Shown here one piece after another: positions 8,371 through 31,482 of a stretch of 31,500 bases of DNA. Numbering within the stretch: position 1 is the first letter of the stretch; the number at the start of each line of letters is the position of its first letter. The stretch is taken from positions 1 through 31,500 of the IMG/VR virus record IMGVR_UViG_3300046795_000031; one strand, 5' to 3'. This DNA is from a virus. Lineage: Duplodnaviria > Caudoviricetes. The position numbers and the translations under genes are program-made. The notes below the pieces were generated by a model. It made no database searches, was not told where the DNA came from, and was given only the letters and a program-made list of their open reading frames with translations.

Positions 8371-8469
8371 CTATTCGCTCGGGCGGAAGTACAAGAGTGC
8401 AAGTGTACAAGGGTTGGACTCTTTTACTTTTGCACTTTTACACTCTTGTACTTCTTCGCTTTCGGTCAT
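8371..8469 (-). CDS. 32-aa micro-ORF encoded by repeat B2
   Basis: MTESEEVQECKSAKVKESNPCTLALLYFRPSE. Starts in an ATGA overlap with the upstream stop. Confidence 0.4.
   Translation of the reverse strand: MTESEEVQECKSAKVKESNPCTLALLYFRPSE
8386..8454. repeat. Family B inverted repeat, copy B2
   Basis: GAAGTAC AAGAGTGC AAGTGTAC AAGGGT-tgg-ACTCTTTT ACTTTTGC ACTTTTAC ACTCTTGT ACTTC. Confidence 0.95.
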
Positions 8470-11401: not shown

Positions 11402-11444
11402 AAGTTCGAGGCTCTTTTACCCTTTTACTCTTGTACTCTTTTAC
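11375..11444. repeat. Family B inverted repeat, copy B3, between convergent genes
   Basis: AAGAGTAC AAGAGTAC AAAAGTAT AAAAGT-tcgagg-CTCTTTT ACCCTTTT ACTCTTGT ACTCTTTT AC. Contains both TAA stops. Confidence 0.95.
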
Positions 11445-11746
11445 AAATTCCGAAGGACCGGAAAAGTCGCGATCTCGGTGCGTAGATCCGAGGTCGTGAA
11501 AGTCAGCTCGGCCTGCACCTCGAAAACGCCATAAGGTACCAGATCGCCGGCTACGGTCGTGACGACGAGCTTACCGTCGCTCCCCGGCGGGTTGGAAAAG
11601 TTAGCGGTCTTTTCCAAGCGCACGCCGTTCGGCTTTTTGAACAGCAATTTTTTGACTGTCGCGGCGGATATGTTCCTGGCGCTGCCGTCGCTATTGAGCA
11701 CGCCGTATTCGATCGGTACCCCTATCGCATTCTCTTGAATTGCCAT
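11441..11746 (-). CDS. Small beta-rich structural protein (BppU N-terminal-like)
   Basis: FKKPNG...DGKLVVTTVAGDL..YGVFEVQAELTF pattern. AGGAG RBS. Confidence 0.6.
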   Translation of the reverse strand: MAIQENAIGVPIEYGVLNSDGSARNISAATVKKLLFKKPNGVRLEKTANFSNPPGSDGKLVVTTVAGDLVPYGVFEVQAELTFTTSDLRTEIATFPVLRNL

Positions 11747-15892: not shown

Positions 15893-16602
15893 TTCGACGT
15901 CGTAGCGCAGGCCGTCTGACTCGCCGGGCTGTTCGGGTTCCCGGTTGCCACTACCCCGACGCAATAGCTCGTATACCTTTTGCGCAGTAACCAATCCCAT
16001 GTCGTCACATCAGGAGCCAAAGTCACCAGCTTGACCGCGTCTGTCTTCGGTCCCTTAGCCGTCCTTCCCCAGACCTCGTAGCCGGTTTCATCATCAACGT
16101 CATCCCACGTCACGCGAAGGCTCGACGATGAGACCGCGGCAATCGTCACCCCGACCGGCGTACTCGGCGGAGCTCCGGTAATAGCCGGACTCGTCCAGCA
16201 CGCCTGCACGCTCGGAGGACTGGATTGCGCCGACTTGGTGGCGATGACGTCCCAGCAATGCGCCACGCCGCCCGCATCCGTGAAAGTGTTTTGAAAGCTC
16301 GTCGTGGTCGCCACTACCGTCCCGATCTGCGCCATTGCCCCGCCGGCGTCGCCGCGGCGGATCACATAATTGGCCGGCGCGTCGTGCGTGGCGTCGACCA
16401 CCGAGGCGGTCCAGCTCACCGTCGCTAGGCAATTCTGCGAGGTGGCTGTTACGCGCTGGCAGGTTTTCTGGGCCTCGGCCGGCGCCGCAGCGGCGAGTAA
16501 AAAAGTACAAAAGTAAAAGAGTACAAAAGCCCGGACCCTTTTACTCTTATACTCTTGTACCCTTGTACTCTTGTACCCTTGTACTCTTTTACTCTTGTAC
16601 AT
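15889..16602 (-). CDS. Fibronectin type III domain protein with a repeat-encoded signal peptide
   Basis: Two FN3-like units (VSWTAS...YVIRR; PSTPVGVTIAAVSSSSLRVTWDD...GYEVW). N-terminus ends FVLFYFCTFLLAAAAPAEA-Q. Confidence 0.85.
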   Translation of the reverse strand: MYKSKRVQGYKSTRVQEYKSKRVRAFVLFYFCTFLLAAAAPAEAQKTCQRVTATSQNCLATVSWTASVVDATHDAPANYVIRRGDAGGAMAQIGTVVATTTSFQNTFTDAGGVAHCWDVIATKSAQSSPPSVQACWTSPAITGAPPSTPVGVTIAAVSSSSLRVTWDDVDDETGYEVWGRTAKGPKTDAVKLVTLAPDVTTWDWLLRKRYTSYCVGVVATGNPNSPASQTACATTSK

Positions 16603-16615
16603 TTTTTACCCTCTT
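16495..16615. repeat. Family B inverted repeat, copy B4 (longest; encodes RBS, start and signal peptide)
   Basis: About 4 A-rich units, cccgg spacer, then 8-9 T-rich units (ACTCTTGT/ACCCTTGT/ACTCTTTT). Confidence 0.95.
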
Positions 16616-18643
16616 TTAGTCCGCGCTGATCTCGATCGACGACGCCGAGCTGATCTCCACGGATGCCGGCGCGGCGATCTCCACATATTTCCCCGGACCG
16701 CCGATCAATGGCGTGTTCATGTCGCTGACGATCTGCGTCGGGGATCTCGCGTAGTTATAGATTCGCGGCTCATCTATCTTGCCGACGAAGTTCTCGCCAA
16801 ATTGACTTGCGCCGATGGTTACGTTGGCGCTAGTCGGCGTCATTGCAGGCGCAGACGGCTGGCTAGTGATAGGCTTGCCGTCTAAATAAAACGTCAGCGA
16901 TGAGCCATCGTAGGTTACGGCTAAATAGGACCACGTATTAAGCGGCGGCACTGCGCTGGCGCAAATGAACTGATTGTCCGGCGTGGCGTAACCGCCAATG
17001 GGCGCAATCGGCAATGACGGGCAATAGGCAAGCTCGCTCCCTACGTAGAGAAAATATCGCTCGCCCCTGATAACAGCACTGAAGCCGGATAATACGGCAG
17101 TCGGGAAAATCCAGGCCTCCAATGTCATTGCAGGCGCAAGCGCCAAAGAAGCCGAGGCGGTAATATTCAAATTGCCGGTGCCGTCGAACATCACCGCCTT
17201 GCCGTACTTGCCGGCATTGTCCCACGTCACGCCGCCGACCAGAGCAGCATTGTTTTTTTGTCCCGATACATCGACCGCGCTGGTCCCAGTACCTTCGTCG
17301 AGGGGCAAAGCAAGCACTAATTGATTCGGGGGTGGCGCTACTGTGCCGGCAAACTCATAAGCACCCATGTCATAAGCACCGACACGGGCGGCGTTGCTAT
17401 AATCGACGTCATAGGGTGCCCCAAGAGTCGCCCCTGCATTGATGGCGGGAGAGCCAGCGGATAAATGGAAATCGCTGCCAGGATTTACAAACAATGGGTT
17501 TCCTGCACGCGAGCACCCGGCGCTAAGCGTCGGACAAAAATTATTTGAGACGTTGGCCCCAACTACGGAAAAAAGCGGCCCCGTCATAGTGTTCAGGATG
17601 TTATTCTTAACGATGGTATCGGACAGATTCTCAAACCCCGCAGCACTCATGCTATAAACCGTATTTTCTGCAATCGTCACATTTGAAGCGGTCGAATGGA
17701 GCGCAACAGCCTTCGTGCCACAGTTAAAGATATTGTTAAATATCTTTTGGCTGCTCGATGAGTCCGCGTGCCAAAACATGATGGCAGGAGGATTACTAGG
17801 GTCAGGCGGGCCAGATGTGCTACAAGCTCCGTAGTGGTGAAAATAGTTTCCCTCTATGGTGATGTTGCCTATCTTAAAAATTCCTTGGGAATTCATGTGA
17901 ATCCCGTAGGAAGGGAAATCGTAAAATTCGTTCCCCTTGATGATAGAATCGTACCCTTTGGCATAAATCACATAAGCAAATCCCACCCCATCGGTGAATC
18001 CGCCACTATGAAATTTGTTATTTAACACCTCTATGTTATTCCCGTCCTGAGGCGGACCGTCGTGGCCGAACATGAACATATTGTTCTTAGGCGAGTTCTT
18101 CCATTCGTTGTATTGAAAACGCACATAATTAGGCCCGGTATCGCCGCACGCTATACTTACGCCTGCGTCCGTGACGGTCATCAAGGCCATGTCAAAAACA
18201 AAGCCGTCAATGATGGTAAAATAGTTGGTGCCTACGGCAGGACTACACCAACGCAGCAAGACGCCATCACGTCTAATCGTAACCGTTCCCCGCGTTTCTG
18301 CTTTGAGCGTGAACGGGGCGCTCCAAGACGTACCCCTTGGCATCAAGAACACTCCAAGCGAAGCCTCGTCCAAGTTTTCTGAGTAGGTTCCCGGTTTGAC
18401 GATGACCGTCTTGTTGGCCCCGGCCCCAGCTGAAGTGCCGATACAATCCAGCGCGGCCTTGATCGTGGTTGACGGCGTGGAGGAAGTTTGCATCGTGGTG
18501 CAGTTGGTCGTCGAGCCGCCCCCGGCGTAGTAGGTTTGCGCGGCGGCAGACGGTAAAAAAGTGCAAAAGTACAAGAGTAAAAGAGCGAGGAAAAATCCGA
18601 GACTCTTGTACTCTTGCACTCTTTTACTCTTATACTTCTTCAT
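16616..18643 (-). CDS. Right-handed beta-helix plus LamG/concanavalin domain protein with a repeat-encoded signal peptide
   Basis: TIKAALD...VIVKPGTYSE, repeated I..N.F turns, DFHLSAGSPAINAG...YDMGAYE, and a LamG part (MTLEAWI...WSYLAVTYDG...GKIDEPRIYN). Confidence 0.9.
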   Translation of the reverse strand: MKKYKSKRVQEYKSLGFFLALLLLYFCTFLPSAAAQTYYAGGGSTTNCTTMQTSSTPSTTIKAALDCIGTSAGAGANKTVIVKPGTYSENLDEASLGVFLMPRGTSWSAPFTLKAETRGTVTIRRDGVLLRWCSPAVGTNYFTIIDGFVFDMALMTVTDAGVSIACGDTGPNYVRFQYNEWKNSPKNNMFMFGHDGPPQDGNNIEVLNNKFHSGGFTDGVGFAYVIYAKGYDSIIKGNEFYDFPSYGIHMNSQGIFKIGNITIEGNYFHHYGACSTSGPPDPSNPPAIMFWHADSSSSQKIFNNIFNCGTKAVALHSTASNVTIAENTVYSMSAAGFENLSDTIVKNNILNTMTGPLFSVVGANVSNNFCPTLSAGCSRAGNPLFVNPGSDFHLSAGSPAINAGATLGAPYDVDYSNAARVGAYDMGAYEFAGTVAPPPNQLVLALPLDEGTGTSAVDVSGQKNNAALVGGVTWDNAGKYGKAVMFDGTGNLNITASASLALAPAMTLEAWIFPTAVLSGFSAVIRGERYFLYVGSELAYCPSLPIAPIGGYATPDNQFICASAVPPLNTWSYLAVTYDGSSLTFYLDGKPITSQPSAPAMTPTSANVTIGASQFGENFVGKIDEPRIYNYARSPTQIVSDMNTPLIGGPGKYVEIAAPASVEISSASSIEISAD
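18553..18640. repeat. Family B inverted repeat, copy B5 (encodes a signal peptide)
   Basis: AAAAGTGC AAAAGTAC AAGAGTAA AAGAG-spacer-ACTCTTGT ACTCTTGC ACTCTTTT ACTCTTAT ACTTC. Confidence 0.95.
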
Positions 18644-19737
18644 TGAATCCCCACCACCCTTCGCCGCGTTCCCGCCCCTCCCACAGTAGCTATGTCGCCC
18701 ACTTCAAAATCGTCGAGCCGCGCCGTTTCACTGCCACTGACGGCAAACGCGGAATTGAGCATCATGCCGCCGCGTCCGCTGGTATGAGTCGAATCCGTGC
18801 CCGTCAGAACGGAAACGCCATTGCGAAAAACGGTCAGTCCCGTGCCGCTGATTTCGAGCCGCGCCACATCGCCGAAGCTCCATAGGGGATAGCCACTTTC
18901 GGTGCCAACTGTTGTCGAAGCACCGGCTACGCGCTTTTGTAAAAGGGTGGATACGCTGCCGCTGACATGCCGCCCGCAGCGGGCAAAATAGCCACTAAAA
19001 GTGCTCGGCGCTGCCATGCGCACGGCTGGACCGACATCACCATCTCCGGTCGTAAGGTATTGCACGATGACGCCTTGAGCGTATTGATCCGGCCCCGGCG
19101 TAACTGCGTTATAAGAAGCAACACAGCGCGAGCCGATGGCACACTCTGCGGCATTGCTGACAACCGTAGGGGTTGACTCACCGGTATACCCGCCGCTCCA
19201 ATTAGCACTGAGCGCAGAAGTCCCTGTGTTAAAGTTGTCCGTCGCCGAGGCTGCCCACGCCAAGGCCGCGCCGAGTAGGGGCGATTCATGAATCGCCCTT
19301 ACGGCGAAGCGAATCGCCCGGTCCCGGTAGTCCCGCCATGAGCCCTTGATGACCGCCGGAGGTGGAGTCATCGCCTTTAGATCGGCCTTTGGATCGCGTA
19401 TGAGGATAGCCGCTGCCGCCTCTGCCGGTGGTATTGCCTTGCTGGCAATTCCCGGCGGAAGCGTCAACGTAGTAGGAAAACAGACGTAGGTGTCGGGATA
19501 TGTCGGCTTGCCATCTGGATTGCTTGGAATATGCGCCGACCAGTTAGCGCCGAGCATTCCCTCGACACCTGGCGGGATAGCAGGTCTATAAGGCGAGCTA
19601 TCCGAGCCATTACCGATGATCGGCAATAAGAGGCAGTCCGCCTGCGCAAGCGCGGGGAAGTACAAAAGTATAAAAGTACAAAAGTACAAAGGTCCGAGAC
19701 TCTTGTACACTTTTACTCTTGTACCCTTGTACTTCAT
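18640..19737 (-). CDS. Two-domain protein (Pro-rich N-domain plus concanavalin-like C-domain) with a repeat-encoded signal peptide
   Basis: Start MKYKGTRV at 19737, one nt after the upstream TGA. ALAQA-D site. C-domain ATDNFN...DQYAQ...RLEISGTGLTVFRNG...LDDFEVG. Confidence 0.8.
   Translation of the reverse strand: MKYKGTRVKVYKSLGPLYFCTFILLYFPALAQADCLLLPIIGNGSDSSPYRPAIPPGVEGMLGANWSAHIPSNPDGKPTYPDTYVCFPTTLTLPPGIASKAIPPAEAAAAILIRDPKADLKAMTPPPAVIKGSWRDYRDRAIRFAVRAIHESPLLGAALAWAASATDNFNTGTSALSANWSGGYTGESTPTVVSNAAECAIGSRCVASYNAVTPGPDQYAQGVIVQYLTTGDGDVGPAVRMAAPSTFSGYFARCGRHVSGSVSTLLQKRVAGASTTVGTESGYPLWSFGDVARLEISGTGLTVFRNGVSVLTGTDSTHTSGRGGMMLNSAFAVSGSETARLDDFEVGDIATVGGAGTRRRVVGIQ
19275..19302. repeat. 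Family A palindrome, copy A5 (in-frame VRAIHESPL)
   Basis: GTAG-GGGCGATTCATGAATCGCCC-TTAC, with an extra half copy GAATCGCCCG at 19311-19320. Confidence 0.95.
19657..19735. repeat. Family B inverted repeat, copy B6 (encodes a signal peptide)
   Basis: GAAGTAC AAAAGTAT AAAAGTAC AAAAGTAC AAAGGT-ccgag-ACTCTTGT ACACTTTT ACTCTTGT ACCCTTGT ACTTC. Confidence 0.95.
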
Positions 19738-19738
19738 T

Positions 19739-21460
19739 TCATTCACTATCCACCACAAACGTGATCGTCACCGTGACTCTTTTAGTTGCACCGCCGACCG
19801 CCGCATTGACCATGACGAAATCAATCATCTGACCGATAGCGATGGCGTCCTCGCCTGAAACAAAACTCGTCGAAGTCGCACCGCTTGTAGTGCAATCCAG
19901 ATCGGACGAAAGAATATTCGCCGGGCTGCCATCATTGCGCTGCAAGTTTATTCTGGCGGTATTGGTATTCGTCCTGCACTTGACGCTCGTAATGTGAAAA
20001 GCCGCCAATTGATTCTCGTAAATATCCGGTTGATCGTCGCCGTTGGTAAGGTCGGCACCCGTGTCCGATCCGATGATGAAAGTAATGTTGCGCTTTCTAA
20101 GCGTCGCCGCCTGGATGCCCACTTTACCGGTGGTGCCGGTCGCTTTTAGTTGAACGCTGTTGGTGGAGACATCCCCGATCTCTATTTTCTTGCTTGAGTT
20201 GATGCTGTCCGCATCCTCGCAAACTGTACTATCGTTGAGCGTTGTGGCGCTGGCCGCTTTGGATAAACAGCCGGTAGCCAAACCGCTAATGCCGCCGGGC
20301 GCGTTGCCGAGCTGCGAGACCATTTGAAAATTGGTCCCATCGTGGACGACTTCAACGATCTGGCCGGCGCGGATATCGTTGTCGACAAGATCGGTCGTCA
20401 CGCCGCCCACCGGCTTTTTGATCGTGACCGGGCTGGCGATGCCGTTCAGTGCCAACGTCGCCGCGCCGGTGTTGGCCGTATTCGCTTTAAAAAAGTAATG
20501 AGCGCCGGTCGTATACGCCGTGATCGACGGTGTCAGTGCGCAAGCATAGGCGTCGGTCGATCCGGCGTCGGCACAGTACGCGCTCGCCCCTGGATTGATG
20601 ATAGTCGAGAGAGCGCGCCAGCTGCTCACACCAGAAGTCGCATCATATTGGAGGATCAAGCCCTGATTCGGCCCGACTATGATATCGGAACCGAAGGCAA
20701 AGCGGCTGCCGGTAGCCGATGACGATGATTGATTAGGGAAGATCGCAGCAAAACTGCCGACGTTGTAAAGCGTGAGGATGCGTCCGTCTTGCCCGCCAAG
20801 AAGTCCGGTGATCGACCATATCGCGTTAGTGCTGAATCTGATCGTTGAGGCGGTCGAGAGGCCGGTTGGATTCCAGTCGTTGGTGTTGGCGGTCAAAGCG
20901 GCTGGCGTGATATCGCCGGCGAGGTCGAGGCGGCCGAGCTGGATGATCTTGCCGAGGATCGCCACAGTCGAGCATAGACCAACTTGAGGTTGCGGACCGC
21001 CTGGATTGATAACGCATATTTCGTTACTCGTTGGCAATACGTCAGTGACATCGCCAGTCCCGCCGCCACCCGCGCCGCCGCCGATCGACGCCCATGCCGA
21101 GCCGTTCCATGCGCAAAGCACGCGAGTCGAGCCGCCGCCCACTGTGCAATCCGTCCCGCTCGCGCCGTTTGTCACGATCGAGAGCGGATGCGAGGCAGGG
21201 AGAGCCGCAACCGTATATTCGGGCAATTTAAATAAAACTGTCTTGCCGGTGAGATCCACCGTACTGCAAAGCGTGATCGACGGCGCGACTCCTGGCGTAT
21301 TGCCAATGCAAACCGCATTGGTCTCGCCTGTCGGAATCATTTCAGATTTGCGCGGGATGTTCGGGCTGATCGATGAATCGGGAATGTATTGCGCCGCGTG
21401 TAGGGGCGATTCATGAATCGCCCCTACGATGACCAATAAAATTAATAATATTTTTTTCAT
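19739..21460 (-). CDS. Mosaic tail-fibre-like protein with a signal peptide
   Basis: Start MKKILLILLVIVGAIHESPLHA-A at 21460. Fibre-type modules (FKANTANTGAATLALNG...DIRAGQIVEVVHDGTNFQM; GGQDGRILTLYN). Confidence 0.8.
   Translation of the reverse strand: MKKILLILLVIVGAIHESPLHAAQYIPDSSISPNIPRKSEMIPTGETNAVCIGNTPGVAPSITLCSTVDLTGKTVLFKLPEYTVAALPASHPLSIVTNGASGTDCTVGGGSTRVLCAWNGSAWASIGGGAGGGGTGDVTDVLPTSNEICVINPGGPQPQVGLCSTVAILGKIIQLGRLDLAGDITPAALTANTNDWNPTGLSTASTIRFSTNAIWSITGLLGGQDGRILTLYNVGSFAAIFPNQSSSSATGSRFAFGSDIIVGPNQGLILQYDATSGVSSWRALSTIINPGASAYCADAGSTDAYACALTPSITAYTTGAHYFFKANTANTGAATLALNGIASPVTIKKPVGGVTTDLVDNDIRAGQIVEVVHDGTNFQMVSQLGNAPGGISGLATGCLSKAASATTLNDSTVCEDADSINSSKKIEIGDVSTNSVQLKATGTTGKVGIQAATLRKRNITFIIGSDTGADLTNGDDQPDIYENQLAAFHITSVKCRTNTNTARINLQRNDGSPANILSSDLDCTTSGATSTSFVSGEDAIAIGQMIDFVMVNAAVGGATKRVTVTITFVVDSE
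21400..21427. repeat. Family A palindrome, copy A6 (perfect 28 bp, inside a signal peptide)
   Basis: GTAGGGGCGATTCATGAATCGCCCCTAC. Confidence 0.97.
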
Positions 21461-21462
21461 GT

Positions 21463-21699
21463 TTACCAGAAATATCGCGCCCAAAGGTCCACGCCGCTTG
21501 CCGGCGCGATCCCCATCTTGACCGCCGTACCCGACACTCCGTACTCCGCCTCGCCCGGTGTCGGATTGACCGCCACGCGCACTTGACGGATGCCGCTGTG
21601 AACGATCATCATGCTTTCCGCTATCGGCGTGTGACTGATCGTAAAGTTCACGTTTGATCCGTTCTTGGTGCCGATGAGATCTTCGATAACCCACGTCAT
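21463..21699 (-). CDS. Small beta protein paralogous to the C-terminal domain of 22086..22847
   Basis: EDLIGTKNGSNVNFTISHTP...HSGIRQVRV versus ETPSGGTGTVFTLSQNP...WSGLVLKRV. An alternative GTG start at 21774 adds a hydrophobic leader. Confidence 0.75.
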   Translation of the reverse strand: MTWVIEDLIGTKNGSNVNFTISHTPIAESMMIVHSGIRQVRVAVNPTPGEAEYGVSGTAVKMGIAPASGVDLWARYFW

Positions 21700-21797
21700 G
21701 ATCCACCAAAGTAAAAAAGTACAAAAGTAAAAGAGTAAAAGAGTCCGGACTTTTTTACCTTTGTACTCTTGCACTCTTTTACCCTCTTATATTTCAT
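21696..21797 (-). CDS. 33-aa micro-ORF encoded by repeat B7
   Basis: MKYKRVKECKSTKVKKSGLFYSFTFVLFYFGGS. ATGA overlaps at both ends. Confidence 0.5.
   Translation of the reverse strand: MKYKRVKECKSTKVKKSGLFYSFTFVLFYFGGS
21707..21793. repeat. Family B inverted repeat, copy B7
   Basis: AAAAGTAC AAAAGTAA AAGAGTAA AAGAGT-ccgg-ACTTTTTT ACCTTTGT ACTCTTGC ACTCTTTT. Confidence 0.95.
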
Positions 21798-21994
21798 GTC
21801 TTTACTTCCCATTGATCGTAAAACCGGCACACCGAATTCTGATAAATCACCTCGGCAGAGAGCAGCCACGTCTCGTTTGGCACCTGCCCGACATCGCGGA
21901 TCGAGCGCAGCTTGCCGTAGTCGATCCAATCGCCCTCGCCCCATTTGATTCTTATTTGCTGCCCTACTACCGGCAGTCCTTCGGCAAATGTCAT
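21794..21994 (-). CDS. Hypothetical protein flanked by two family B repeats
   Basis: Start MTFAEGLP at 21994. Confidence 0.65.
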   Translation of the reverse strand: MTFAEGLPVVGQQIRIKWGEGDWIDYGKLRSIRDVGQVPNETWLLSAEVIYQNSVCRFYDQWEVKT

Positions 21995-22089
21995 AATCTC
22001 TCGAATGTACAAGAGTAAAAAAGTACAAAGGTAAAAGAATCCGAGGACTCTTGTACTCTTGCACTCTTATACTCTTTTACTTTTTTCAT
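21991..22089 (-). CDS. 32-aa micro-ORF encoded by repeat B8
   Basis: MKKVKEYKSARVQESSDSFTFVLFYSCTFERL. ATGA overlaps at both ends. Confidence 0.5.
   Translation of the reverse strand: MKKVKEYKSARVQESSDSFTFVLFYSCTFERL
22005..22086. repeat. Family B inverted repeat, copy B8
   Basis: AAGAGTAA AAAAGTAC AAAGGTAA-aagaatccgagg-ACTCTTGT ACTCTTGC ACTCTTAT ACTCTTTT ACTTTTTT. Confidence 0.95.
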
Positions 22090-22847
22090 GCCGTCACATA
22101 TTGGGCGGTGATATTTTGCCCGGCTACAACACTTGAGCCCATCGTAATAGTGCGGTTGCCGACACCTCCCGCGGTAAACTGAAGCTCTGCCGGTGCCGAG
22201 GCGACGCGCTTCAAAACTAAACCCGACCAGGCGACGATTAGGGAATTCAAATCGGGGTTTTGACTCAGTGTAAATACCGTCCCGGTCCCGCCGCTCGGCG
22301 TCTCGGTGACGAACGTCCCTATATTAGCGACTGTCGACGGCGGCGTCGGTATCGTCTGCGGCGGGACGTCGAGCAGCGCCGCCTGGATCGCGGTGATCTC
22401 CGAATTGGAGATGATCGAATTGAGCTTGCAGACATGACTGATATGTATTCCAAGAGCGCCGACATATACGCCGCTGCCATTAAACGGATTGCTATTAGTC
22501 GGCGTCGACTTGGGTACGCGATCTTCAAACCAAATCAGCGTGCTTGCATTGCTTAATATATTCTCAGTAGCAAATGAGAGAGTTTCTCCGGTAGTCATCG
22601 CGATGCCCAAATTGAGTTCATAATAGCCGTTGCTATCCACTGCATATTGAAATCGCGGTACATTGACCGCCACAGCATGAATGAATCCATCCCGCCGAAT
22701 CGCAGTCGATGTACTCGCTCGCGTAAATGTCACGCCATCGATCCCCATGAAGTCCAGGTTATCCAATAGCGGCGCATAGAAAGTGATTTTCTTGCGCAGC
22801 GTGTAGTTCAATTTCAATAAATTGGCGATGGTCCAAAATTGCAACAT
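22086..22847 (-). CDS. Putative tail fibre/adaptor protein
   Basis: TFTRASTSTA..RDG.I..VAVNVPRF motif typical of fibre N-termini. Follows the tail-tip gene. Confidence 0.7.
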   Translation of the reverse strand: MLQFWTIANLLKLNYTLRKKITFYAPLLDNLDFMGIDGVTFTRASTSTAIRRDGFIHAVAVNVPRFQYAVDSNGYYELNLGIAMTTGETLSFATENILSNASTLIWFEDRVPKSTPTNSNPFNGSGVYVGALGIHISHVCKLNSIISNSEITAIQAALLDVPPQTIPTPPSTVANIGTFVTETPSGGTGTVFTLSQNPDLNSLIVAWSGLVLKRVASAPAELQFTAGGVGNRTITMGSSVVAGQNITAQYVTA

Positions 22848-22859
22848 TTAAATTCACAT

Positions 22860-22913
22860 GTAGGGGCGATTCATGAATCGCCCTTACGAATCGCCCGTAC
22901 GAATCGCCCGTAC
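22860..22913. repeat. Family A palindrome, copy A7, with two extra tandem half-sites
   Basis: GTAG-GGGCGATTCATGAATCGCCC-TTAC, then GAATCGCCCGTAC x2. Confidence 0.95.
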
Positions 22914-22917
22914 CATT

Positions 22918-25900
22918 TCAGGCAATATCCGCGTCCGTTATCCTTTGCAGTTGAAAATCATTGGATTGCACAAAGGCGCTCATATTGCCGCTGAAATCAA
23001 TGGCCCGCACTTGAACATAAAGACTCTGCCCGGTCCCATCAGGGTGGAAGTAGGGCGGCGGGTTGTTGCTCAAGTCAAAAACCATCCGCACATTGCTCGT
23101 CTGCCCTACCAGCGCGGCGCTCGTTCCTGCCCTGGCCTGTGCATAGCCGATTAGGTTGCCGCGATAGGGATTGCCTGAAGCATCGAGAAGAAAGTCGAAA
23201 CTCACGACTACGGCCTCTATCGCGGCGAGATCCAACGAGGTTGGCAGATTGAAACTCGCCTGAATCGTGACGGTTTTTAAAACGCCCCAGGCTTCCACGG
23301 TACGCGGAGGATCTGGCGGTGTCGTATCGCCAAAAAAAGTCGTCGGCCCACGAATTACCGGAGCGAAATTATTGTAAACTCCGCTTGAATTGAAAGGCGT
23401 GAATCGATGATACCAAGTACCGCCTTGATCGCCTCCGTCACGCTCCCAGTGTATTCCGGTGGGGCGCGCCAGTTCATACCAGTGTATTCTGTCCGCAGAT
23501 TGCTCGATTTTGAATCCGTATGTCTCGCTGAAACTTGTCCAGCGAATACGATAGGTCGTGCCAATGGTCGGCAGTCCGGTGAACTGCTCGCAAGCTGCCG
23601 AACGGCTAAGGGCGTCGTAATATAAAATCTTTCTTTCCTGGTCGTGAAACGGTCCATCGGCGATAAGTAAATAAGCGCCTCGATAATAATTGGTCTGCTC
23701 GGCTATCGACGGTTCGTTAAAATCCAAAACGATGACGGTCGTAGTCACATCGGTTATACCGGCACCCATCGGCCCTGCCGTATGCGCATTGCCCGACATA
23801 TGACCGCCATGTACGGCCAGCCCGCGAGTAATATCGAATAGGATAACTGCTCCCCAACTCCCATCCCTTCTTTGCACTACTTGGCACTGCACCGAAGCGT
23901 CGCGGATCGGAATCGGCGGCACGATAGATAGCGGAAATCGTTTGCGATCAAGCCCCGGCGGTAGCGCATCGGGATTATAAACCTCCTCGATATATTCGGT
24001 CCGGATCTGCGTGATATGCCCCTGATCGTCGATCTGAAAGTCCCGCGCCCGCGTCTTGATGTGGTCGATCAATTCCACGCCGATGGCGAATATCGCGCCC
24101 TCTTCCACCGGATTATTGAAAGACGAAGCCATCGCGATCTCATTCCAGCGGCCCGGCCCCGTAGCTATCAGGCGCGTCTCACATAAGCTCATCCCCTTGT
24201 GTTGAATAATGGCGAGATAGCTTTTCCCTACCTCAAGCTCGATGGTGTAAGGCAAATATAGAGTGGCGACGGTACAACCTGCCGGGAGCACTCCCGTATA
24301 TGCGCCGATATCTCCGATGGTGCGCTCGCTCAGCCAATCGATATCGAACGGCTCGCCTGTCAACTGACTTGAAGGCGAAACGAAACTGAACCGGCGCTTT
24401 TCGAGATCCTGCCGTTTCATTTGAATCATGTTTTCGCGGATCACCTCGGACTCGCGGGTAATAGTCTCGTAAGCAACCACCTTTTGATTGACCGAAGTTC
24501 TCGGCGCGATGCTGTCTATCGGCTGGGAAAGCTCGCTCGTGTAGTCGCTTGCGCTGTCTCTAAATTGACCGACGATTTGATTGAAGGGATCGTCCGGCGG
24601 GCTGATCTCCATCGAGATCGAGCCTTCGATGATATTGCCCGGCTCGGCGAGTAGCATATTCGGCGTGCCGGGTTTGTCGATCACATATTTCCAAAGAAGT
24701 CCTGATGGAAAAACACAGGCGCGGCCCTCGCCTGCAACTCTTTTCACCCAATCCCAATCCCATCGCCGCTCGGTTATTCCGACATCGCAGAGGTCGCGCT
24801 GCTCCGTACCGCCGCCCTGCGCCGGGACTAACTCGTCATAGTAAGCGAGCGAGTCGAAATGCCATTGGCTGTCATCTATCTCAGCCTCGCTGAATTCATA
24901 GCCCATGCCGCAAGTAGGATGCACCATCATGTCGCGCACGATCTGGGTGCGCTCTCGCGTATAGGATAGCGGCGACCCCGGTATCAAAACATTCTTGCAC
25001 TTCTTACCTTTGACGAATGCCGACACTTCGACGGACTGAAGATTCTTGACTTGATTGCCCTGCAATCCGGTAATTCCCAACAGCACATAGCCGGGATAGT
25101 TCGTAGTCGTATAGCTCACCTCTTCAACGTTAAATATGACCACCGTGGTGGCATGAGGATCTTGTATCGAACCCAGGCCGGCGCTATTGACGGTGATCTT
25201 CAAATCCCATTGCCCGGCCGGCGCAAGCTCGTCATGCCAGATCGCGCCTTCAAACTGCCCGAACATAATCCAATGCTGAAAAGCCGCCATCGGTGAGCTG
25301 CCGTGAAACGGATCGGCGGCCACGTCGGGACGGTCGGCCCAATATTGATTCGCCGCTTCCAGGGACACCATAGAAGTCTGGATATAGACGTCGCGAAAAA
25401 AGGCGCTCCGAACGGCGTCTTCTATGTGCCACAACGGCCCCGACACACTAGGCACATAGACAAAATCGGCACTGCTGCCGGTCCGCCTTAAATCGATGCG
25501 CAGGTCGACAAAGTCCTGACGAAATTGTCCCGTCTTAGTCGCGCTCCAAAGACCGGCGGGAAAATGCAGAATCAGTTTAATTACATTGATGTTATTTCCC
25601 TGCGTCGTGTAATTGAGCGGCGTGCCTTCTTCGCGTGTCTCATTATAAGGTAAGGTCCGACCGTCAACGAATAGATTCGATGTCCGGCTGAATTCAGGAA
25701 TAACGCTTTGAGTCAGACTCCCGAGCCGGGTGTGGACCGTGACGCCCTTGTATTGATCGGCTGGTATCCTGTCGATTCGCACGTCATAGATCGCTTCATA
25801 ACCATCGCCGCCGCTGTCGCCGATGCAATAAAGAATATTGGCGAGCATGGTCGTATAATCAGCAGACAAGTTCGCGCCCGATGCGATCACATGTCCCCAT

Positions 25901-26352
25901 ACCCTTTGCTCGCCGTACCAGACTGGGATCGGCACGCCCTGCCCCGTAGTGTTTTGAAATCCGGTAATGCCGAAGGCTTGGCCGCTGCTGCCGTCGAGCT
26001 TTGGCGCTTTGGGATTGGGAGTCAGTGCTTTGACTATTGCCGACATCGCTATCGACACCGCTATTGAGGCGACGATATTGACCACGGTAGCCGCGACCGT
26101 CCCCGCTGCTAACGCTGTCGATAAAGCAGGGATCAAGGCAAGAAGTGGCGCTCCTGTTTTTAACCCCAAGCGCACCCGGTCGCTCTTTTGTGGGACATAG
26201 CTTTGCCAATCGGCAATCAATCGGCCATTGATTAAACACGTCTCGACCGCTGGCAAGCACTCTTTGAGCAACGCCGCAAGATTAAGCCCGCAGGCATCTA
26301 CCGCCGCGCTCTCTTCGTATCCTGCCGGGCCATCTGCAACCGTTAGGAGCAT
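22918..26352 (-). CDS. Tail tip / host-specificity protein (lambda gpI-like N-terminus fused to a gpJ-like body)
   Basis: Hydrophobic ALIPAL...VSIAMS segment, GVPIPVWYGEQRVWG, RLGSLTQSVIP, VKGKK, GNIIEGS and a C-terminal FN3-like region (DTTPPDPP...VRAIDFSGNMS). Confidence 0.9.
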   Translation of the reverse strand: MLLTVADGPAGYEESAAVDACGLNLAALLKECLPAVETCLINGRLIADWQSYVPQKSDRVRLGLKTGAPLLALIPALSTALAAGTVAATVVNIVASIAVSIAMSAIVKALTPNPKAPKLDGSSGQAFGITGFQNTTGQGVPIPVWYGEQRVWGHVIASGANLSADYTTMLANILYCIGDSGGDGYEAIYDVRIDRIPADQYKGVTVHTRLGSLTQSVIPEFSRTSNLFVDGRTLPYNETREEGTPLNYTTQGNNINVIKLILHFPAGLWSATKTGQFRQDFVDLRIDLRRTGSSADFVYVPSVSGPLWHIEDAVRSAFFRDVYIQTSMVSLEAANQYWADRPDVAADPFHGSSPMAAFQHWIMFGQFEGAIWHDELAPAGQWDLKITVNSAGLGSIQDPHATTVVIFNVEEVSYTTTNYPGYVLLGITGLQGNQVKNLQSVEVSAFVKGKKCKNVLIPGSPLSYTRERTQIVRDMMVHPTCGMGYEFSEAEIDDSQWHFDSLAYYDELVPAQGGGTEQRDLCDVGITERRWDWDWVKRVAGEGRACVFPSGLLWKYVIDKPGTPNMLLAEPGNIIEGSISMEISPPDDPFNQIVGQFRDSASDYTSELSQPIDSIAPRTSVNQKVVAYETITRESEVIRENMIQMKRQDLEKRRFSFVSPSSQLTGEPFDIDWLSERTIGDIGAYTGVLPAGCTVATLYLPYTIELEVGKSYLAIIQHKGMSLCETRLIATGPGRWNEIAMASSFNNPVEEGAIFAIGVELIDHIKTRARDFQIDDQGHITQIRTEYIEEVYNPDALPPGLDRKRFPLSIVPPIPIRDASVQCQVVQRRDGSWGAVILFDITRGLAVHGGHMSGNAHTAGPMGAGITDVTTTVIVLDFNEPSIAEQTNYYRGAYLLIADGPFHDQERKILYYDALSRSAACEQFTGLPTIGTTYRIRWTSFSETYGFKIEQSADRIHWYELARPTGIHWERDGGDQGGTWYHRFTPFNSSGVYNNFAPVIRGPTTFFGDTTPPDPPRTVEAWGVLKTVTIQASFNLPTSLDLAAIEAVVVSFDFLLDASGNPYRGNLIGYAQARAGTSAALVGQTSNVRMVFDLSNNPPPYFHPDGTGQSLYVQVRAIDFSGNMSAFVQSNDFQLQRITDADIA

Positions 26353-26732
26353 AAATCCTTATGACGATAAAAGCCTTTAAGAGACGAGTCCCAGACAGGA
26401 CGACTAATATCGATCTTGCCGACGCCATTCGTTTGAGGAATACATTGAATACATTTTCGATAATCGATCATCACTCCAATATGAAAGCCGCCCCCTTCAA
26501 ATTGCGCGCCATGAAAAACCGCGATATCGCCGAAACGCGGCTCCTCTACCTTGACGAAATTACGTCTTTCCTTAATTGCCTCTTTGCTAATCTCGTTTCC
26601 CATTTCAGCAAAAAACTTGATGACGAATTTCAAGCAACCCTCATCCTCGTAAGGCAGGCCGAGCCAGCCGCCAAGCCCCACCGGCTTATTACAAAGGTCT
26701 TCGATCCGTTTTCTGGTTTCTTCCTCGATCAT
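26343..26732 (-). CDS. NlpC/P60-like tail assembly protein (gpK-like)
   Basis: WLGLPY...GCLKFV...PRFGDIAVF...FHIGVMID...GFYRH. Start at 26732 via an ATGA overlap. Confidence 0.75.
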   Translation of the reverse strand: MIEEETRKRIEDLCNKPVGLGGWLGLPYEDEGCLKFVIKFFAEMGNEISKEAIKERRNFVKVEEPRFGDIAVFHGAQFEGGGFHIGVMIDYRKCIQCIPQTNGVGKIDISRPVWDSSLKGFYRHKDLCS

Positions 26733-27229
26733 GAGATCCGCGGCACTTCCGGACTCAAGCCGGGAAATTCCGATTGAGTGTAAATTTTCCTCGGCAATAC
26801 ACCTCGGCCAAGCCAGCGCCCAATGGTAAAATTTACCATCGACTGATCGGCTTTGATTGCCATGATTTTCGCCGCTCGCTCCCAATGGCCCGTTATTTTA
26901 GATAACAAATCTGCATGCAGCAGGCGCAGCGTTACGGCATTGCCAGTCACATCGATTTCTTTTACATACTTGCCAGCTAATCCGGCCAAGTTGGAAACCG
27001 ATATCGTCGCCGCCTCGATGCTCATGCCTTGTGAGGTTTTCAAATTAATCCACGTCATCAGAATCGGTTGAAACGTGTGGCCATTCCATGTAATCGGCTC
27101 GGGATTCTCTGCCCAATACGAGATTACCGGCCCGACCGGGTTTTCGACCAATTCGACGGTCTTGATGAATCTGCCGCCTTCGTAATTCGCCGCTAATTTT
27201 CTTACATACGCATCGTCTAGGATTAACAT
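26729..27229 (-). CDS. Minor tail protein (gpL-like hub)
   Basis: ITWNGHTFQP...ATISVSN...LPRKIYT..EFPGL, in the canonical position. Confidence 0.75.
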   Translation of the reverse strand: MLILDDAYVRKLAANYEGGRFIKTVELVENPVGPVISYWAENPEPITWNGHTFQPILMTWINLKTSQGMSIEAATISVSNLAGLAGKYVKEIDVTGNAVTLRLLHADLLSKITGHWERAAKIMAIKADQSMVNFTIGRWLGRGVLPRKIYTQSEFPGLSPEVPRIS

Positions 27230-27243
27230 TCATTAAATTTCCG

Positions 27244-27271
27244 GTACGGGCGATTCATGAATCGCCCCTAC
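27244..27271. repeat. Family A palindrome, copy A8 (supplies a TAG stop)
   Basis: GTAC-GGGCGATTCATGAATCGCCC-CTAC. Confidence 0.95.
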
Positions 27272-27843
27272 GTTGCCACCTCTTCTATGACCAATTTCAG
27301 CCGGTGAATATTCTCAGCGGTTATCTGCGAGCGAAACGAGCGCGACATCTGGGTCTTTTCCTCGGTCCGCAGCACGCATTTAATCCGCCGCCTATATTTG
27401 GCCGTGATCGGGTAGTTAGGATTGATGACTCCGGTAAACCGGATCGCGTCGCAGGTGATCCCATCGCCGCCGAGCGGCGACCACGGCTGATAAAACGACC
27501 CGTTGACGTAAACTAACAACGACGAAACAAACACAAAACGGTGTGGCAGATCGTAGTCTGTCGTGTTGGCGATCCCGATGGCCACTAGGACCGGCGCGAC
27601 CACCTCGCCGAAGCCGGCACCGTCAAACCAGAAAGGCGTGTCGCCTTGAACGTTCTCCAACAGTCCCAGCACCGGGCCGAGCAATTCCTGGCGGCCCGGG
27701 ACAACCAGCTCCCAGCTTGAGAGCGGCCGCTTTTGCAATCGTCTGAACATCATCGTGCCGTTGCCGACGGGGTCTTTCATCGTGGGCATGGAAAGATTTT
27801 GCGGCATGACGTGTTCCGGCGCGGCGAGTATCGTATAGGCCAT
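27268..27843 (-). CDS. Distal tail protein (gpM/DUF2460-like)
   Basis: Follows the tape measure gene. GDTPFWF motif with an inserted beta domain. Confidence 0.7.
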   Translation of the reverse strand: MAYTILAAPEHVMPQNLSMPTMKDPVGNGTMMFRRLQKRPLSSWELVVPGRQELLGPVLGLLENVQGDTPFWFDGAGFGEVVAPVLVAIGIANTTDYDLPHRFVFVSSLLVYVNGSFYQPWSPLGGDGITCDAIRFTGVINPNYPITAKYRRRIKCVLRTEEKTQMSRSFRSQITAENIHRLKLVIEEVAT

Positions 27844-28005
27844 TTATTTTTCCACTACGTTTTCATGCTTTTTTATAGTCTGTTGAAGTCCACACCACTT
27901 GCACCACAAAACCGTTTCACCATTCGGATAAATAGGAGGCGCATGATGCCAATGATAACGATGAGCAAATTTCATAAGCAATCGGTACAAATAGCCATAA
28001 ATCAT
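27844..28005 (-). CDS. 53-aa His/Cys protein absent from the ORF track
   Basis: MIYGYLYRLLMKFAHRYHWHHAPPIYPNGETVLWCKWCGLQQTIKKHENVVEK. ATGA overlap with the tape measure stop, and its TAA abuts the next ATG. Confidence 0.65.
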   Translation of the reverse strand: MIYGYLYRLLMKFAHRYHWHHAPPIYPNGETVLWCKWCGLQQTIKKHENVVEK

Positions 28006-30200
28006 TTTCCCCGCAGCCTCAGCCTCTGCTCGATCGCGCTCATCACCATGCCGTCATTGGTAATATTGCCGGCGGTGACGCGCACCACCTGGTCCGGCGT
28101 CATGTTCGGTTGGCGCGGCGTGATATCACCGTTGATCTCGATATTGACCGCAGGAGCGCCGCCGCCCGGCACCTTGCCTGTCTTATTCATCATCCCGAGC
28201 GTATCCGCGCCGATATTATCGACGGCCTTTTTCTGCATGACGAATTCGCCGCCGTGGCCAATAAAAAGGCCACCGCTGGCGAAGCTCGGGATCATGCCGC
28301 CGCGGGCCAGTCCTGTCCATCCTAATTCAAGATCGAGTGCCGACATTGATCCGGCTCCGGCACTGCTACCACCACCAAATAGACCGGCCAAACCTCCACC
28401 GCCGCCCCCCAATGCTTGGCTTACCCATTGCGATACTTGCTGGCCGAGTCTTTTCGCCCAGGCTTTTAATTCCTTGTTTGCAGCTTCGTCCAATGCGCCT
28501 ACAAGTCCTGAGATAAATCCCGATGCTATTGCTTTTAATGGTTCGAGAATTGTCTTGTCGAAGATCGCACCCTGCAATTCCAGCATCATGTTACGGAGCA
28601 AATTTTTCATCCCCTCGCCGATGCTTTGATCACCCGTCTCAATGCCCATCAGGGTATTTTTTAAACCCGATGTTAATGAGTTGGCTACTTCTTCCCCGAG
28701 TTTATCCGCCTGACTCTTTATCGATTCGATAGACTTGAGCGTCCCGGCTTCCGCCGTCGTAATCAATGAATTGATTTGATCTTCGGTCAATCCCGCTTCT
28801 CTTCCTACTTCGCCAATTTGAAGCGCGAGATTGCCAAATTCTGTTTTTAATTCTTGAATCCTTCGGGCGTCGTTTTCTTCCGGTACAAGACCCAATCCAA
28901 GTTGTTGCTCTAACTTAATAATTTGTTTTCTCGCCTCAATCTTTTGTTGATCTGTTCTCGCCTGATTCTCGTTGAATTCTCTTTGCTGTTCCGGTGTCAA
29001 ACCAAAGCGCGTCGATTCCTCTATCAGCGGCGTATCTTTGCGGCTTTGTTCTGCTAATCGATGGAGATCGTCGCGTGCAAGACCTTCCAACCGCAATTGA
29101 TCGGTTAATTCACGGCGGCGTTCCTGCTCGGCCTTAATAGCAGCAGTTATATGCTTGGAGTTTTCCTCCATCTCCTGTTGCTGAAGCGTATAATTCTGTG
29201 CGGCTTCTTTACCTGAGTTTAACTCGATGATCTGTGCTTGCAGCGCAGCATTCGATTTTTGCAACGCCTCAACCATCGCCTTTATTTCTTCGGCGGCTTT
29301 TTTTGCGGCTGCTTCATCGATTGGCGGTTTGAATTTCGCCCCCGGCTCTTTTGCCGGCGTATGAGATTGCGGCGATAACAATTCCGCAAGCTGCGATTCG
29401 ATGTCCGCCTTGTCTATAAAGCCTTCGTGAAAGGCACCCGCCCAGAATTGTTTCCAATACAAATAACCTCGTTGGAGCGACCGACTGATATTGTCTAAAT
29501 CTTCAATCAGCCTCGACAGTTGTCCCGCGAGATATACCTCTATCGTATTGGAAATCCTGGTCCAGGAATCGCCCCAACGATCCAGTATCTCTATATCTTC
29601 CTCGCTGATGCCTCCTGCTTTAAGTTCGGCGAGTCGTCCCGACATCTCTAAAATGGCCGGACCGAGCTCGCGGAAACTCTTACCAAGTAACTGCGCACCT
29701 AGCGCGGCCCGATTGAGCGGATTGCTGACGTTACCTAACGCATCGGTGATGAGCTTTAAAAAATCCTCGGTATTGGCGTTGCGCACTTCATCGAGATTTA
29801 AACCGAGCGCCTTTACCGCCTGCGCTGCGGGGTCAGTTTCGTTTTTGATACCGCCGAGGTTTTTTTGAAGTGTGAAGATGCCCTTGGCGAAAGCATCGAG
29901 CGATGTGCCGTTTTCTTCGAGAGTGGATTTGAGACCGCTTAGCGTTTGACTAGATATGCCGGTCTGTAGGGATAAATCTTTAAGTTGGCCGCCGAGATTA
30001 ACGATCTGTTTGCCGTATGCGATGATGGCGCCTGCGCTAAAGGCCGCGCCTAGGATATTGCCGAAACTCTTGGCTAGATTCTCGACGTTGGTGAAGGACG
30101 TTTTAAAAACGCCCTCCATTTCCTTCACATCGACGCGCAGCTTGCCGAGATCGGCGCGCATCTCGACCAGGAGCTGGCCGACGGTGCCCTTACCTGCCAT
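28002..30200 (-). CDS. Tail tape measure protein
   Basis: 732 aa, helical and Ala/Gly/Leu-rich. VGQLLVEMRAD start and GLARGG/FASGG...GGEFVMQKKAV C-terminal motifs. Confidence 0.92.
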   Translation of the reverse strand: MAGKGTVGQLLVEMRADLGKLRVDVKEMEGVFKTSFTNVENLAKSFGNILGAAFSAGAIIAYGKQIVNLGGQLKDLSLQTGISSQTLSGLKSTLEENGTSLDAFAKGIFTLQKNLGGIKNETDPAAQAVKALGLNLDEVRNANTEDFLKLITDALGNVSNPLNRAALGAQLLGKSFRELGPAILEMSGRLAELKAGGISEEDIEILDRWGDSWTRISNTIEVYLAGQLSRLIEDLDNISRSLQRGYLYWKQFWAGAFHEGFIDKADIESQLAELLSPQSHTPAKEPGAKFKPPIDEAAAKKAAEEIKAMVEALQKSNAALQAQIIELNSGKEAAQNYTLQQQEMEENSKHITAAIKAEQERRRELTDQLRLEGLARDDLHRLAEQSRKDTPLIEESTRFGLTPEQQREFNENQARTDQQKIEARKQIIKLEQQLGLGLVPEENDARRIQELKTEFGNLALQIGEVGREAGLTEDQINSLITTAEAGTLKSIESIKSQADKLGEEVANSLTSGLKNTLMGIETGDQSIGEGMKNLLRNMMLELQGAIFDKTILEPLKAIASGFISGLVGALDEAANKELKAWAKRLGQQVSQWVSQALGGGGGGLAGLFGGGSSAGAGSMSALDLELGWTGLARGGMIPSFASGGLFIGHGGEFVMQKKAVDNIGADTLGMMNKTGKVPGGGAPAVNIEINGDITPRQPNMTPDQVVRVTAGNITNDGMVMSAIEQRLRLRGK

Positions 30201-30570
30201 CGCTCATCCCCTGTACGGGCGATTCGTGAATCTGCTGTACGGGCGATTCATGAATCGCCCCTCCCTTATTAAAGAACCGATCCAGGAATAATTCGGACTC
30301 TTCTTCGCTGAGATATTTGTTGCCGTCGGGTGGAAAGGGCAAGAGATCGGTGTATTCAAGAGTTTGACCGCGCCCGCCAAACATATTGGCGACGGATGCC
30401 GTCAGGATCGCCACCGGACGCGCATGGCGGTTCTCTCTTTCAATCCACTGTTCGGATAATAAACGTAGCTCGAACGGCGTGAGCGCCCAGAATTCTTGCG
30501 AGGAAAGGCCGAGGTCTATTCGGGCGAAGGACCAGAGGTCGCTGTCCCATTGAGTTTCATCAAATTTTTT
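30190..30570 (-). CDS. Tail assembly chaperone gpT-like part, reached by -1 frameshift
   Basis: The -1 frame after the A10 run reads KKFDETQWDSDLWSFARIDLGLSSQEFWALTPFEL... and continues into the 30190..30414 ORF. Confidence 0.85.
   Translation of the reverse strand, partial: KKFDETQWDSDLWSFARIDLGLSSQEFWALTPFELRLLSEQWIERENRHARPVAILTASVANMFGGRGQTLEYTDLLPFPPDGNKYLSEEESELFLDRFFNKGGAIHESPVQQIHESPVQGMSDGR
30213..30264. repeat. Family A palindrome, copy A9, plus a partial tandem copy (in-frame GAIHESPVQQIHESPVQ)
   Basis: GTACGGGCGATTCGTGAATC-tgct-GTAC-GGGCGATTCATGAATCGCCC-CTCC. Confidence 0.95.
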
Positions 30571-30941
30571 TTTTCCGCTGATTCAATGGGTGCCTCGTCT
30601 GTCTTGGGCTCGATCTTTAGGTATGTTTCAGTGATTACCCGCAGCGTCAATTGCATCACGTCGCGCAGGTCAAACGGCATCTGTCCGACTGCGTCGATCG
30701 ACAGATCGGGATCTTCATGGAGCATCGAGGCCCATAAGATCGCCTCGCAGAAGTCCATCCCGACGTCGCCCTGCTCGACCTGCGGTAGCTCTTCCATCAT
30801 GATGCGGAAAATAGCTTTGCGCGGCTGCAAGTTTCTCGACTTGTTGAGCTCGCGCTCGGCCGCCTTGAGCCCGCCGACCGTCAGTAATAGCCGGCGCGGC
30901 TTGTCGAGTTCGATGTCTATTGGCTGTACGCCTGCTCTCAT
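30516..30941 (-). CDS. Tail assembly chaperone gpG-like
   Basis: IELDKPRRLLLT...ILWASMLHEDPDLSIDAVG. Lies between the major tail and tape measure genes. Start at 30941. Confidence 0.85.
   Translation of the reverse strand: MRAGVQPIDIELDKPRRLLLTVGGLKAAERELNKSRNLQPRKAIFRIMMEELPQVEQGDVGMDFCEAILWASMLHEDPDLSIDAVGQMPFDLRDVMQLTLRVITETYLKIEPKTDEAPIESAEKKNLMKLNGTATSGPSPE
30562..30576 (-). promoter_or_regulatory. Programmed -1 ribosomal frameshift slippery site
   Basis: GG-AAAAAAAAAA-TTT near the 3' end of the gpG-like gene. Confidence 0.8.
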
Positions 30942-31036
30942 AAAGAATCGACGTATAAGGGTAAAAGAGTACAAGAGTAAAAGAGTCTTCGGACTTTTGT
31001 ACTCTTGTACATTTGTACTTTTGTACTTCTTTTCAC
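30938..31036 (-). CDS. 32-aa micro-ORF encoded by repeat B9
   Basis: (M)KRSTKVQMYKSTKVRRLFYSCTLLPLYVDSL. GTGA overlap with the major tail stop and ATGA overlap with the chaperone start. Confidence 0.5.
   Translation of the reverse strand: MKRSTKVQMYKSTKVRRLFYSCTLLPLYVDSL
30953..31033. repeat. Family B inverted repeat, copy B9
   Basis: AAGGGTAA AAGAGTAC AAGAGTAA AAGAGT-cttcgg-ACTTTTGT ACTCTTGT ACATTTGT ACTTTTGT ACTTCTTT. Confidence 0.95.
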
Positions 31037-31482
31037 GGCAATCCTGCCGTTCCCGTCGTCACGCGCGTCGGCGCCCCGCTGATCCTGACCGTTGCGCCCA
31101 TTCTGATCGCTTTGGTGAAATCGAGATTCGGCGCCGGCGATGTCAAGAAGCCGGGAAAGCCCCAGCCGTGCAGACCGCCGGGAAGTATAATGCCCCATAA
31201 CCGCACCGGCAGCGGCTCGGCGACGGCGTCGTCGTACAAAACAATATGAATCGGGATATTGACGATGTCCCAGAGCACCTCTAACGGCAACTCGCCGCCG
31301 TCCCTGAGTGTTGCGGCGTACTCTTTGTATCCACCCGGTGAACTATGATTAGTTATTTCGTCGAAATCTTGGCGGATTTGCGGCCCCGTCAATACGGTAC
31401 ATTGCGGGATCTCTTCGTAAGTCGATGATGTCGGATTTTTCCGATATAACTTCGACCCCTTCGCGAGCATGTATGTCGACAT
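31033..31482 (-). CDS. Major tail (tube) protein
   Basis: GSKLY...TGPQI...DEITNHSSPGGYKEY...LRDGGE...GFPGFLT...ATVRISGAP. GGAG RBS. Confidence 0.9.
   Translation of the reverse strand: MSTYMLAKGSKLYRKNPTSSTYEEIPQCTVLTGPQIRQDFDEITNHSSPGGYKEYAATLRDGGELPLEVLWDIVNIPIHIVLYDDAVAEPLPVRLWGIILPGGLHGWGFPGFLTSPAPNLDFTKAIRMGATVRISGAPTRVTTGTAGLP

Follow-up and report, generated by a model that had tools for sequence, protein, structure and literature searches.

Why should open reading frames of 32 or 33 codons be wedged between one phage gene's stop codon and the next one's start codon? The question is raised by the window analysed here, which is an entire 31.5-kb contig (31,500 nucleotides) of a long-tailed phage (siphophage). 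Genes for the major tail protein, the tape measure, minor tail proteins and a J-like fibre are followed by accessory genes and then by the replication region. The metagenome runs in which the contig occurs are from soil and rhizosphere, and no RNA datasets are listed among them. A second contig, L001, has the same sequence as the window across their overlap and reaches further, into the head genes. No prophage relative was found among genome contigs. The features at issue are the following.

31033..31482, minus strand: major tail protein (PHROG 158, E 8.5e-13)
30938..31036, minus strand: micro-ORF of 32 amino acids, with a GTG start in the tail-protein stop and its TGA on the chaperone ATG; hairpin at ~30945-31032, folding z -3.8
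30516..30941, minus strand: likely tail assembly chaperone, from its position between tail protein and tape measure and from an A-run with an open -1 frame
22086..22847, minus strand: tail-region gene after the J-like tail fibre; a chain of five ORFs starts here
21991..22089, minus strand: micro-ORF of 32 amino acids, ATGA at both ends; hairpin at ~21999-22086, z -5.0
21794..21994, minus strand: 66-amino-acid gene, 67-85% identity in relatives
21696..21797, minus strand: micro-ORF of 33 amino acids, ATGA at both ends; hairpin at ~21705-21790, z -5.1
21463..21699, minus strand: 78-amino-acid gene, 82-95% identity in relatives; the five-ORF chain ends here
8371..8469, minus strand: micro-ORF of 32 amino acids with an ATGA start, running through an 8-mer hairpin

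The micro-ORFs and their overlaps are real. A first-pass annotation of this DNA had described 31036-30938, 22089-21991 and 21797-21696 as frames that each start in the upstream stop and end on the downstream start, and their coordinates, lengths and overlaps are confirmed; the frame that ends at 30938 starts on GTGA and ends on the ATGA of 30941. The five frames 22847-22086, 22089-21991, 21994-21794, 21797-21696 and 21699-21463 form an unbroken chain of -4 overlaps, again as described. The repeat copy near 6590-6677 falls within the C-terminal part of ORF 6858-6586, at whose end there is an ATGA overlap. The fourth micro-ORF, 8469-8371, does have 32 amino acids and an ATGA start, but it is uncoupled at its 3′ end, where a TAG lies 16 nt ahead of the next ATG with a purine-rich site in between; the downstream gene, of the superinfection-immunity family, has an accessible purine-rich site of its own. 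The chaperone gene has no family match, its assignment being inferred, and no Shine-Dalgarno site precedes it.

Every micro-ORF sits within one copy of a hairpin repeat with an 8-nt period, the left arm being an array of AAGAGTAC-like 8-mers and the right arm its complement. The window contains nine copies and L001 three further ones, and seven of the phage's copies are intergenic. The element measures 65-85 nt, and the gene gaps at intergenic copies are 78-114 nt. Folded in silico, the seven junction copies give -31 to -41 kcal/mol, with z from -3.7 to -7.3. Copies are 49-78% alike, ragged and without fixed ends. Neither the micro-ORFs nor the hairpins have a Pfam, PHROG or Rfam match, and promoter and terminator scans gave background levels, with none on the hairpins. 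The remaining window copies are listed below, with one copy of a second repeat family.

11368..11452, no strand assigned: 8-mer hairpin between convergent genes, where a relay of ribosomes is impossible
6590..6677, minus strand: 8-mer hairpin within the C-terminal part of ORF 6858-6586, the ORF with the ATGA overlap at its end
19648..19740, minus strand: 8-mer hairpin forming a signal-peptide-like N-terminus of gene 19737-18640
18562..18649, minus strand: 8-mer hairpin forming a signal-peptide-like N-terminus of the beta-helix/LamG protein 18643-16616; the orthologue in L026 has an ordinary leader
16495..16622, minus strand: 8-mer hairpin forming a signal-peptide-like N-terminus of 16602-15889; the orthologue in L027 has a 9-mer repeat
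21393..21431, no strand assigned: GTAG-type REP palindrome (family D7), one of ten window copies; it is part of the leader of gene 21460-19739 and in frame with it

Relatives of the phage have hairpins built from other words at the same places. The loop is TCCG or CGGA in 10 of 11 8-mer and 16 of 16 7-mer hairpins of the phage family (three of the sixteen represent a single site), where 6-16% is the background level. Without exception the purine arm comes first; the reverse order was not found. As a universal feature the loop was rejected, since among unrelated phages it occurs in only 6 of 14 entries, two of which are second-strand views. In three unrelated phages (L081, L082, L064), 7-mer hairpins that share this loop core do lie at junctions of head and tail genes, two of them with single bridging ORFs. 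A loosened search for the 8-mer pattern returned L001's contig as its sole match, and a plasmid search gave four short partial matches. No Pfam match to a mobilising gene or tyrosine transposase was obtained when 53 ORFs from the window and 47 from relatives were scanned (of the 83 unassigned ORFs, 34 were included), nor was a four-helix-bundle gene of the type found in 23S intervening sequence cassettes present among the window and relative ORFs scanned.

Comparison of junctions among relatives shows what the micro-ORFs are not. At the junction of tail protein and chaperone, 20 loci whose tail proteins are 93-100% identical display eight kinds of filling: the 8-mer hairpin (L001 only), an empty TAAAATG (two loci), a 7-mer hairpin (five), a 7-mer half element (four), a 9-mer half element (three), a different 7-mer half element (one), a C-rich hairpin (one) and an inserted gene (three). 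When the contigs of four runs were compared, run X4 added another empty allele; small gaps at 22024-22045 in run contigs were left out, as they look like other hairpin copies aligned there. The window's micro-peptide at this junction is found again only in the identical contig L001. In L027 and L029, junctions 22847/21994 and 21994/21699 are empty or almost so; in L028 they contain 7-mer hairpins. Empty alleles are junctions of -4, -1 or at most 7 nt. Between lineages the DNA of the flanking genes is 79-87% alike, and their tree has a star shape from which no insertion order can be read; the fillings therefore look independent. With eight fillings, one of them empty, among relatives whose proteins are 93-98% identical, neither the peptide nor its length is conserved; both were ruled out as explanations, and annotation of the micro-ORFs as conserved small proteins is not warranted. 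The near-constant length noted at first pass thus holds as an observation (32-33 amino acids) but not as a conserved property, bridging frames in the family spanning 22-33 amino acids; it follows from the size of the element, the gaps being 94, 94 and 97 nt.

Small unrelated genes and HNH endonuclease genes are also inserted at these same junctions, after the tail protein in L008-L010, after the chaperone in L002, L009 and L021, and at L026:9420-10013. The 75-amino-acid insert of L008-L010 and the chaperone gene open with identical codons.

There is modest support for a tendency of the frames to form a path from one gene to the next. Nineteen non-redundant hairpin-filled junctions (seven 8-mer, twelve 7-mer) were scored in four spacing windows against phase shifts. 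Relay paths numbered 13 against 9.4 expected (p 0.036), 10 against 5.7 (0.017), 11 against 8.0 (0.064) and 7 against 3.7 (0.027); neither the 8-mer nor the 7-mer family is significant alone (p 0.06-0.26). A null based on permutation of repeat units gave 14 relays against 7.2 (p 0.0004), in a window picked after the data had been seen. The cleanest control is the comparison of strands: 7-mer hairpins have 13 of 36 frames open in sense and 3 of 36 in antisense, with early-start ORFs in 10 of 12 and 3 of 12, respectively. Among 8-mer hairpins the two strands do not differ (12 of 21 frames are open on each). All five intergenic 8-mer copies that precede an ATGA start contain an open frame with a start codon that ends on that ATGA, and a 22-amino-acid 7-mer relay frame is kept in five loci whose flanks are 93-94% alike, the sole indel lying outside the frame.

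Relays also coincide with absent ribosome-binding sites. At 12 of 18 junctions scored there is no Shine-Dalgarno match stronger than -3.5 kcal/mol, as the pyrimidine arm occupies its place, and all 12 carry a relay (11 single ORFs and, in L028, one two-step ATGA chain). Accessible purine-rich sites are present at the two 8-mer junctions where no relay ends close by. Under a strict test, exact coupling from NTGA to ATGA by a single ORF occurs at three of the eight junctions with ends of both kinds, and each of these three is a window site; this test is blind to GTG-start, spaced and two-step relays, and the looser tests came after it. When junctions outside this sample were scored by a criterion set in advance, a relay was present in 4 of 9 against 2.7 expected (p 0.21), with eight open frames in sense and six in antisense; eight of the nine came from unrelated phages, and the one new junction from the family failed. 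REP-filled junctions show no relay excess (4 of 18 against 2.7, p 0.26; one of 19 was left out for a wrong coordinate). Unit order may come from a master copy, and copies would therefore not be fully independent. The ribosome relay suggested at first pass thus has a modest excess over the nulls across two repeat families in its favour, but a replication that was not significant; with this modest support it appears to be a tendency rather than a law.

The reading we favour, at a probability of about 0.62, is that the micro-ORFs are frames through gene-less hairpin repeats that entered formerly coupled junctions and that survive by passing ribosomes to the next start. A hairpin of 30-40 kcal/mol in a once-coupled junction of an essential virion operon would be expected to cut translation of the next gene. 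Such an insert might persist if a frame opens near the upstream stop and closes near the next ATG, if the downstream gene owns an accessible ribosome site, or if the repeat itself supplies an in-frame N-terminal leader. What is proposed is a survivor filter on insertions, akin to the tolerance suggested for MIRUs, rather than a tuned control device, and the peptide itself would be disposable.

The main competitor holds that the overlaps are a neutral by-product of a stop-poor repeat among common starts and stops, downstream genes initiating unaided. The first-pass annotation had itself cautioned that the repeat is stop-poor and that the overlaps, not the openness, are the signal. The caution is borne out by the 8-mer frames, equally open on either strand, and the starts and ends that make up the overlaps are common in this genome: 11 of 36 phage genes start with ATGA and 16 of 36 end in (A/G/T)TGA. 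Gap length modulo 3 is flat over 58 repeat-filled junctions (18/23/17), and the non-significant out-of-sample and REP tests point the same way. A by-product does not, however, readily account for the sense bias (13 against 3) of the stop-rich 7-mer family or for a relay at every one of the 12 junctions without a Shine-Dalgarno match. Nor does it sit well with the window sites: given NTGA and ATGA ends, resampling of repeat units and length phase puts exact coupling at ~0.19 per site and 0.007 for all three, a figure to be read with the three sites having been chosen from the phage's seven intergenic 8-mer copies. Chance overlap is thus rather unlikely as the full account, though clearly the strongest of the alternatives.

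Very improbable, by comparison, is a genuine mobile unit of MIRU type, entering at ATGA overlaps with duplication of the four bases, so that coupling is built in at insertion. Junction 21994/21699 behaves in just this way, with one ATGA when empty (L027, L029) and two when filled, and a REP-filled allele of L027 likewise has ATGA on both sides; MIRUs do have tetranucleotide direct repeats according to excerpts of PMC3184786. The empty orthologues with a single ATGA, proposed at first pass as a check, are thus present at this site but absent at the other two. The tail/chaperone allele is TAAAATG when empty; the window's GTG start there comes from a Pro codon's last base together with TGA, while the ATGA downstream (Met-Arg) is already in the empty allele, just as that of 22847/21994 is already in the short alleles. 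Across four junctions that are ATGA overlaps in relatives, two of eight repeat-filled alleles have ATGA at both ends; in the others a new TAA, TAG or TGA heads the insert, often as the repeat's first letters. A 4-bp target duplication, as first suggested, is therefore not the rule, and as a fixed insertion route it was rejected, failing at two of three window sites and six of eight filled former ATGA junctions. Copies that are 49-78% alike without fixed ends, some of them inside genes or between convergent genes, also speak against such a unit. Equally hard to credit is a selected device, setting the ratio of tail protein to chaperone, or a set of functional small peptides. The stable hairpins in a virion operon and the 7-mer relay kept in five related loci would fit either, whereas the eight fillings among 20 loci, a peptide common only to the identical L001 and the lack of database matches would not. 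The idea that the frames tune stoichiometry is not supported, given a junction that tolerates anything from a 4-nt gap to a whole gene.

If the survivor filter is correct, the closest parallel in working is the MIRU. As described in excerpts of PMC12548453 and PMC3184786, MIRUs are 40-100 nt long, lie in operons, have internal inverted repeats and contain a short ORF that overlaps its neighbours at -4; the internal ORF was proposed to render insertion harmless (Supply et al. 1997, as summarised in these two sources). In the same excerpts, translational coupling is best at spacings of -4 to +3 and weaker with distance, and RNA unfolding is possible (PMC12548453; PMC3184786). By layout, not sequence, the likeness to the MIRUs so described holds for a 40-100 nt repeat between co-oriented operon genes (gaps here 78-114 nt), and the -4 overlap on both sides is exact in three of seven intergenic 8-mer copies, with looser bridging in more. 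It does not hold for the tetranucleotide direct repeat of those excerpts (one of three window sites, two of eight former ATGA junctions). Set against the same descriptions, the arms here are degenerate arrays of 8-nt words (7- or 9-nt in relatives) without fixed ends, the carrier is a phage, several unrelated repeat families take turns at a single junction, and copies also form protein leaders.

In build, the element is closer to arrays of short words. The cyanobacterial STRR are heptamer tandem repeats of comparable type. The TAACTGA heptamer repeats of Beggiatoaceae, in the portions of PMC4679880 drawn on here, form short-word arrays upstream of start codons, mostly intergenic, with the purine-rich strand towards the start codon; a Shine-Dalgarno is often absent, upstream stops are overlapped, 169 sets are direct and one inverted, and the mechanism of spread is given as unknown. 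Compared with that account, the arrays here are likewise oriented to the start codon (purine arm first; 12 of 18 without a strong Shine-Dalgarno match), and half elements in relatives look alike. The unit differs, however, having 8 nt in the window and, where relatives fill these junctions, 7 nt. Most arrays form long inverted pairs that have the TCCG/CGGA loop core in common, with an open frame running across them. REPs and in-frame palindromes such as Rickettsia RPEs are described, in the parts of PMC3733652 drawn on, as lying near gene 3′ ends and sometimes in frame within genes. To that extent the 8-mer element resembles GTAG REPs, being palindromic, near gene 3′ ends and sometimes in frame, and a GTAG REP family shares these junctions; it has neither the GTAG tag nor the fixed 20-40 nt palindrome of such REPs, both of which the separate D7 family has. 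Fixed terminal inverted repeats and a target duplication, as in MITEs, do not occur (ragged ends, 49-78% alike). The element is thus MIRU-like in working and like a word-repeat array in build, and it is not a GTAG REP. In the open-access literature (main texts without supplements) no paper on this combination of features was found.

The leaders are the third way in which a repeat may be tolerated. The three in-frame window copies give basic-then-hydrophobic leaders, putative signal peptides as judged from sequence alone. The leader of gene 21460-19739 (window 21460-21390, minus strand) is formed by the REP in the window, by a 9-mer arm in L026, by a 7-mer hairpin in L028 and P0008, by a partial 7-mer hairpin in P0012 and by an 8-mer hairpin in P0126, and by ordinary sequence in most of the 23 homologues. 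Four repeat families thus encode one putative signal peptide across relatives.

How the hairpins arise may be considered separately. It is conceivable, though we think it distinctly unlikely, that they are written on site by an enzyme that extends a break in a stop/start junction on either side with lineage-specific words of 7, 8 or 9 nt, the ends joining via the shared, partly self-complementary TCCG(G)A core, with no master element. On-site writing would account for the ragged ends, the purine-first order, the half elements and the occurrence of a single loop core with arms of different words. With a purine arm ahead of a pyrimidine arm, the reading in any frame or strand would be basic then hydrophobic, and one cassette could therefore give both relays and signal peptides.

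Whatever their origin, these loci show that repeat DNA can enter a tightly coupled phage virion operon without breaking it. They provide a natural allelic series, in which one junction or signal peptide either lacks a repeat or has a repeat of any one of four to five unrelated types, and two questions become testable with reporters: whether MIRU-like relay frames rescue translation, and how word-built hairpin repeats arise.

Several other features were observed. In the window at 30941-30190 (minus strand) the A-run and open -1 frame are conserved in eight of eight loci, and a frameshift of the G/GT tail chaperone type is likely; in-frame REP copies lie at the end of the -1 extension. In 13 of the 14 loci compared, a small gene after the major capsid gene (L001:6524-6790) has a conserved A-run of 8-10 nt, and the -1 frame behind it is conserved and open; this is likely a second programmed frameshift and unusual for the head region, and in several loci an in-frame REP lies within its -1 extension. 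A C5 DNA methylase ORF (4438-2897, 513 amino acids) overlaps a 309-amino-acid ORF in another frame (4341-3412), both on the minus strand. Finally, the window encodes at 13208-11781 (minus strand) a 475-amino-acid protein made of repeats of 20-22 residues.
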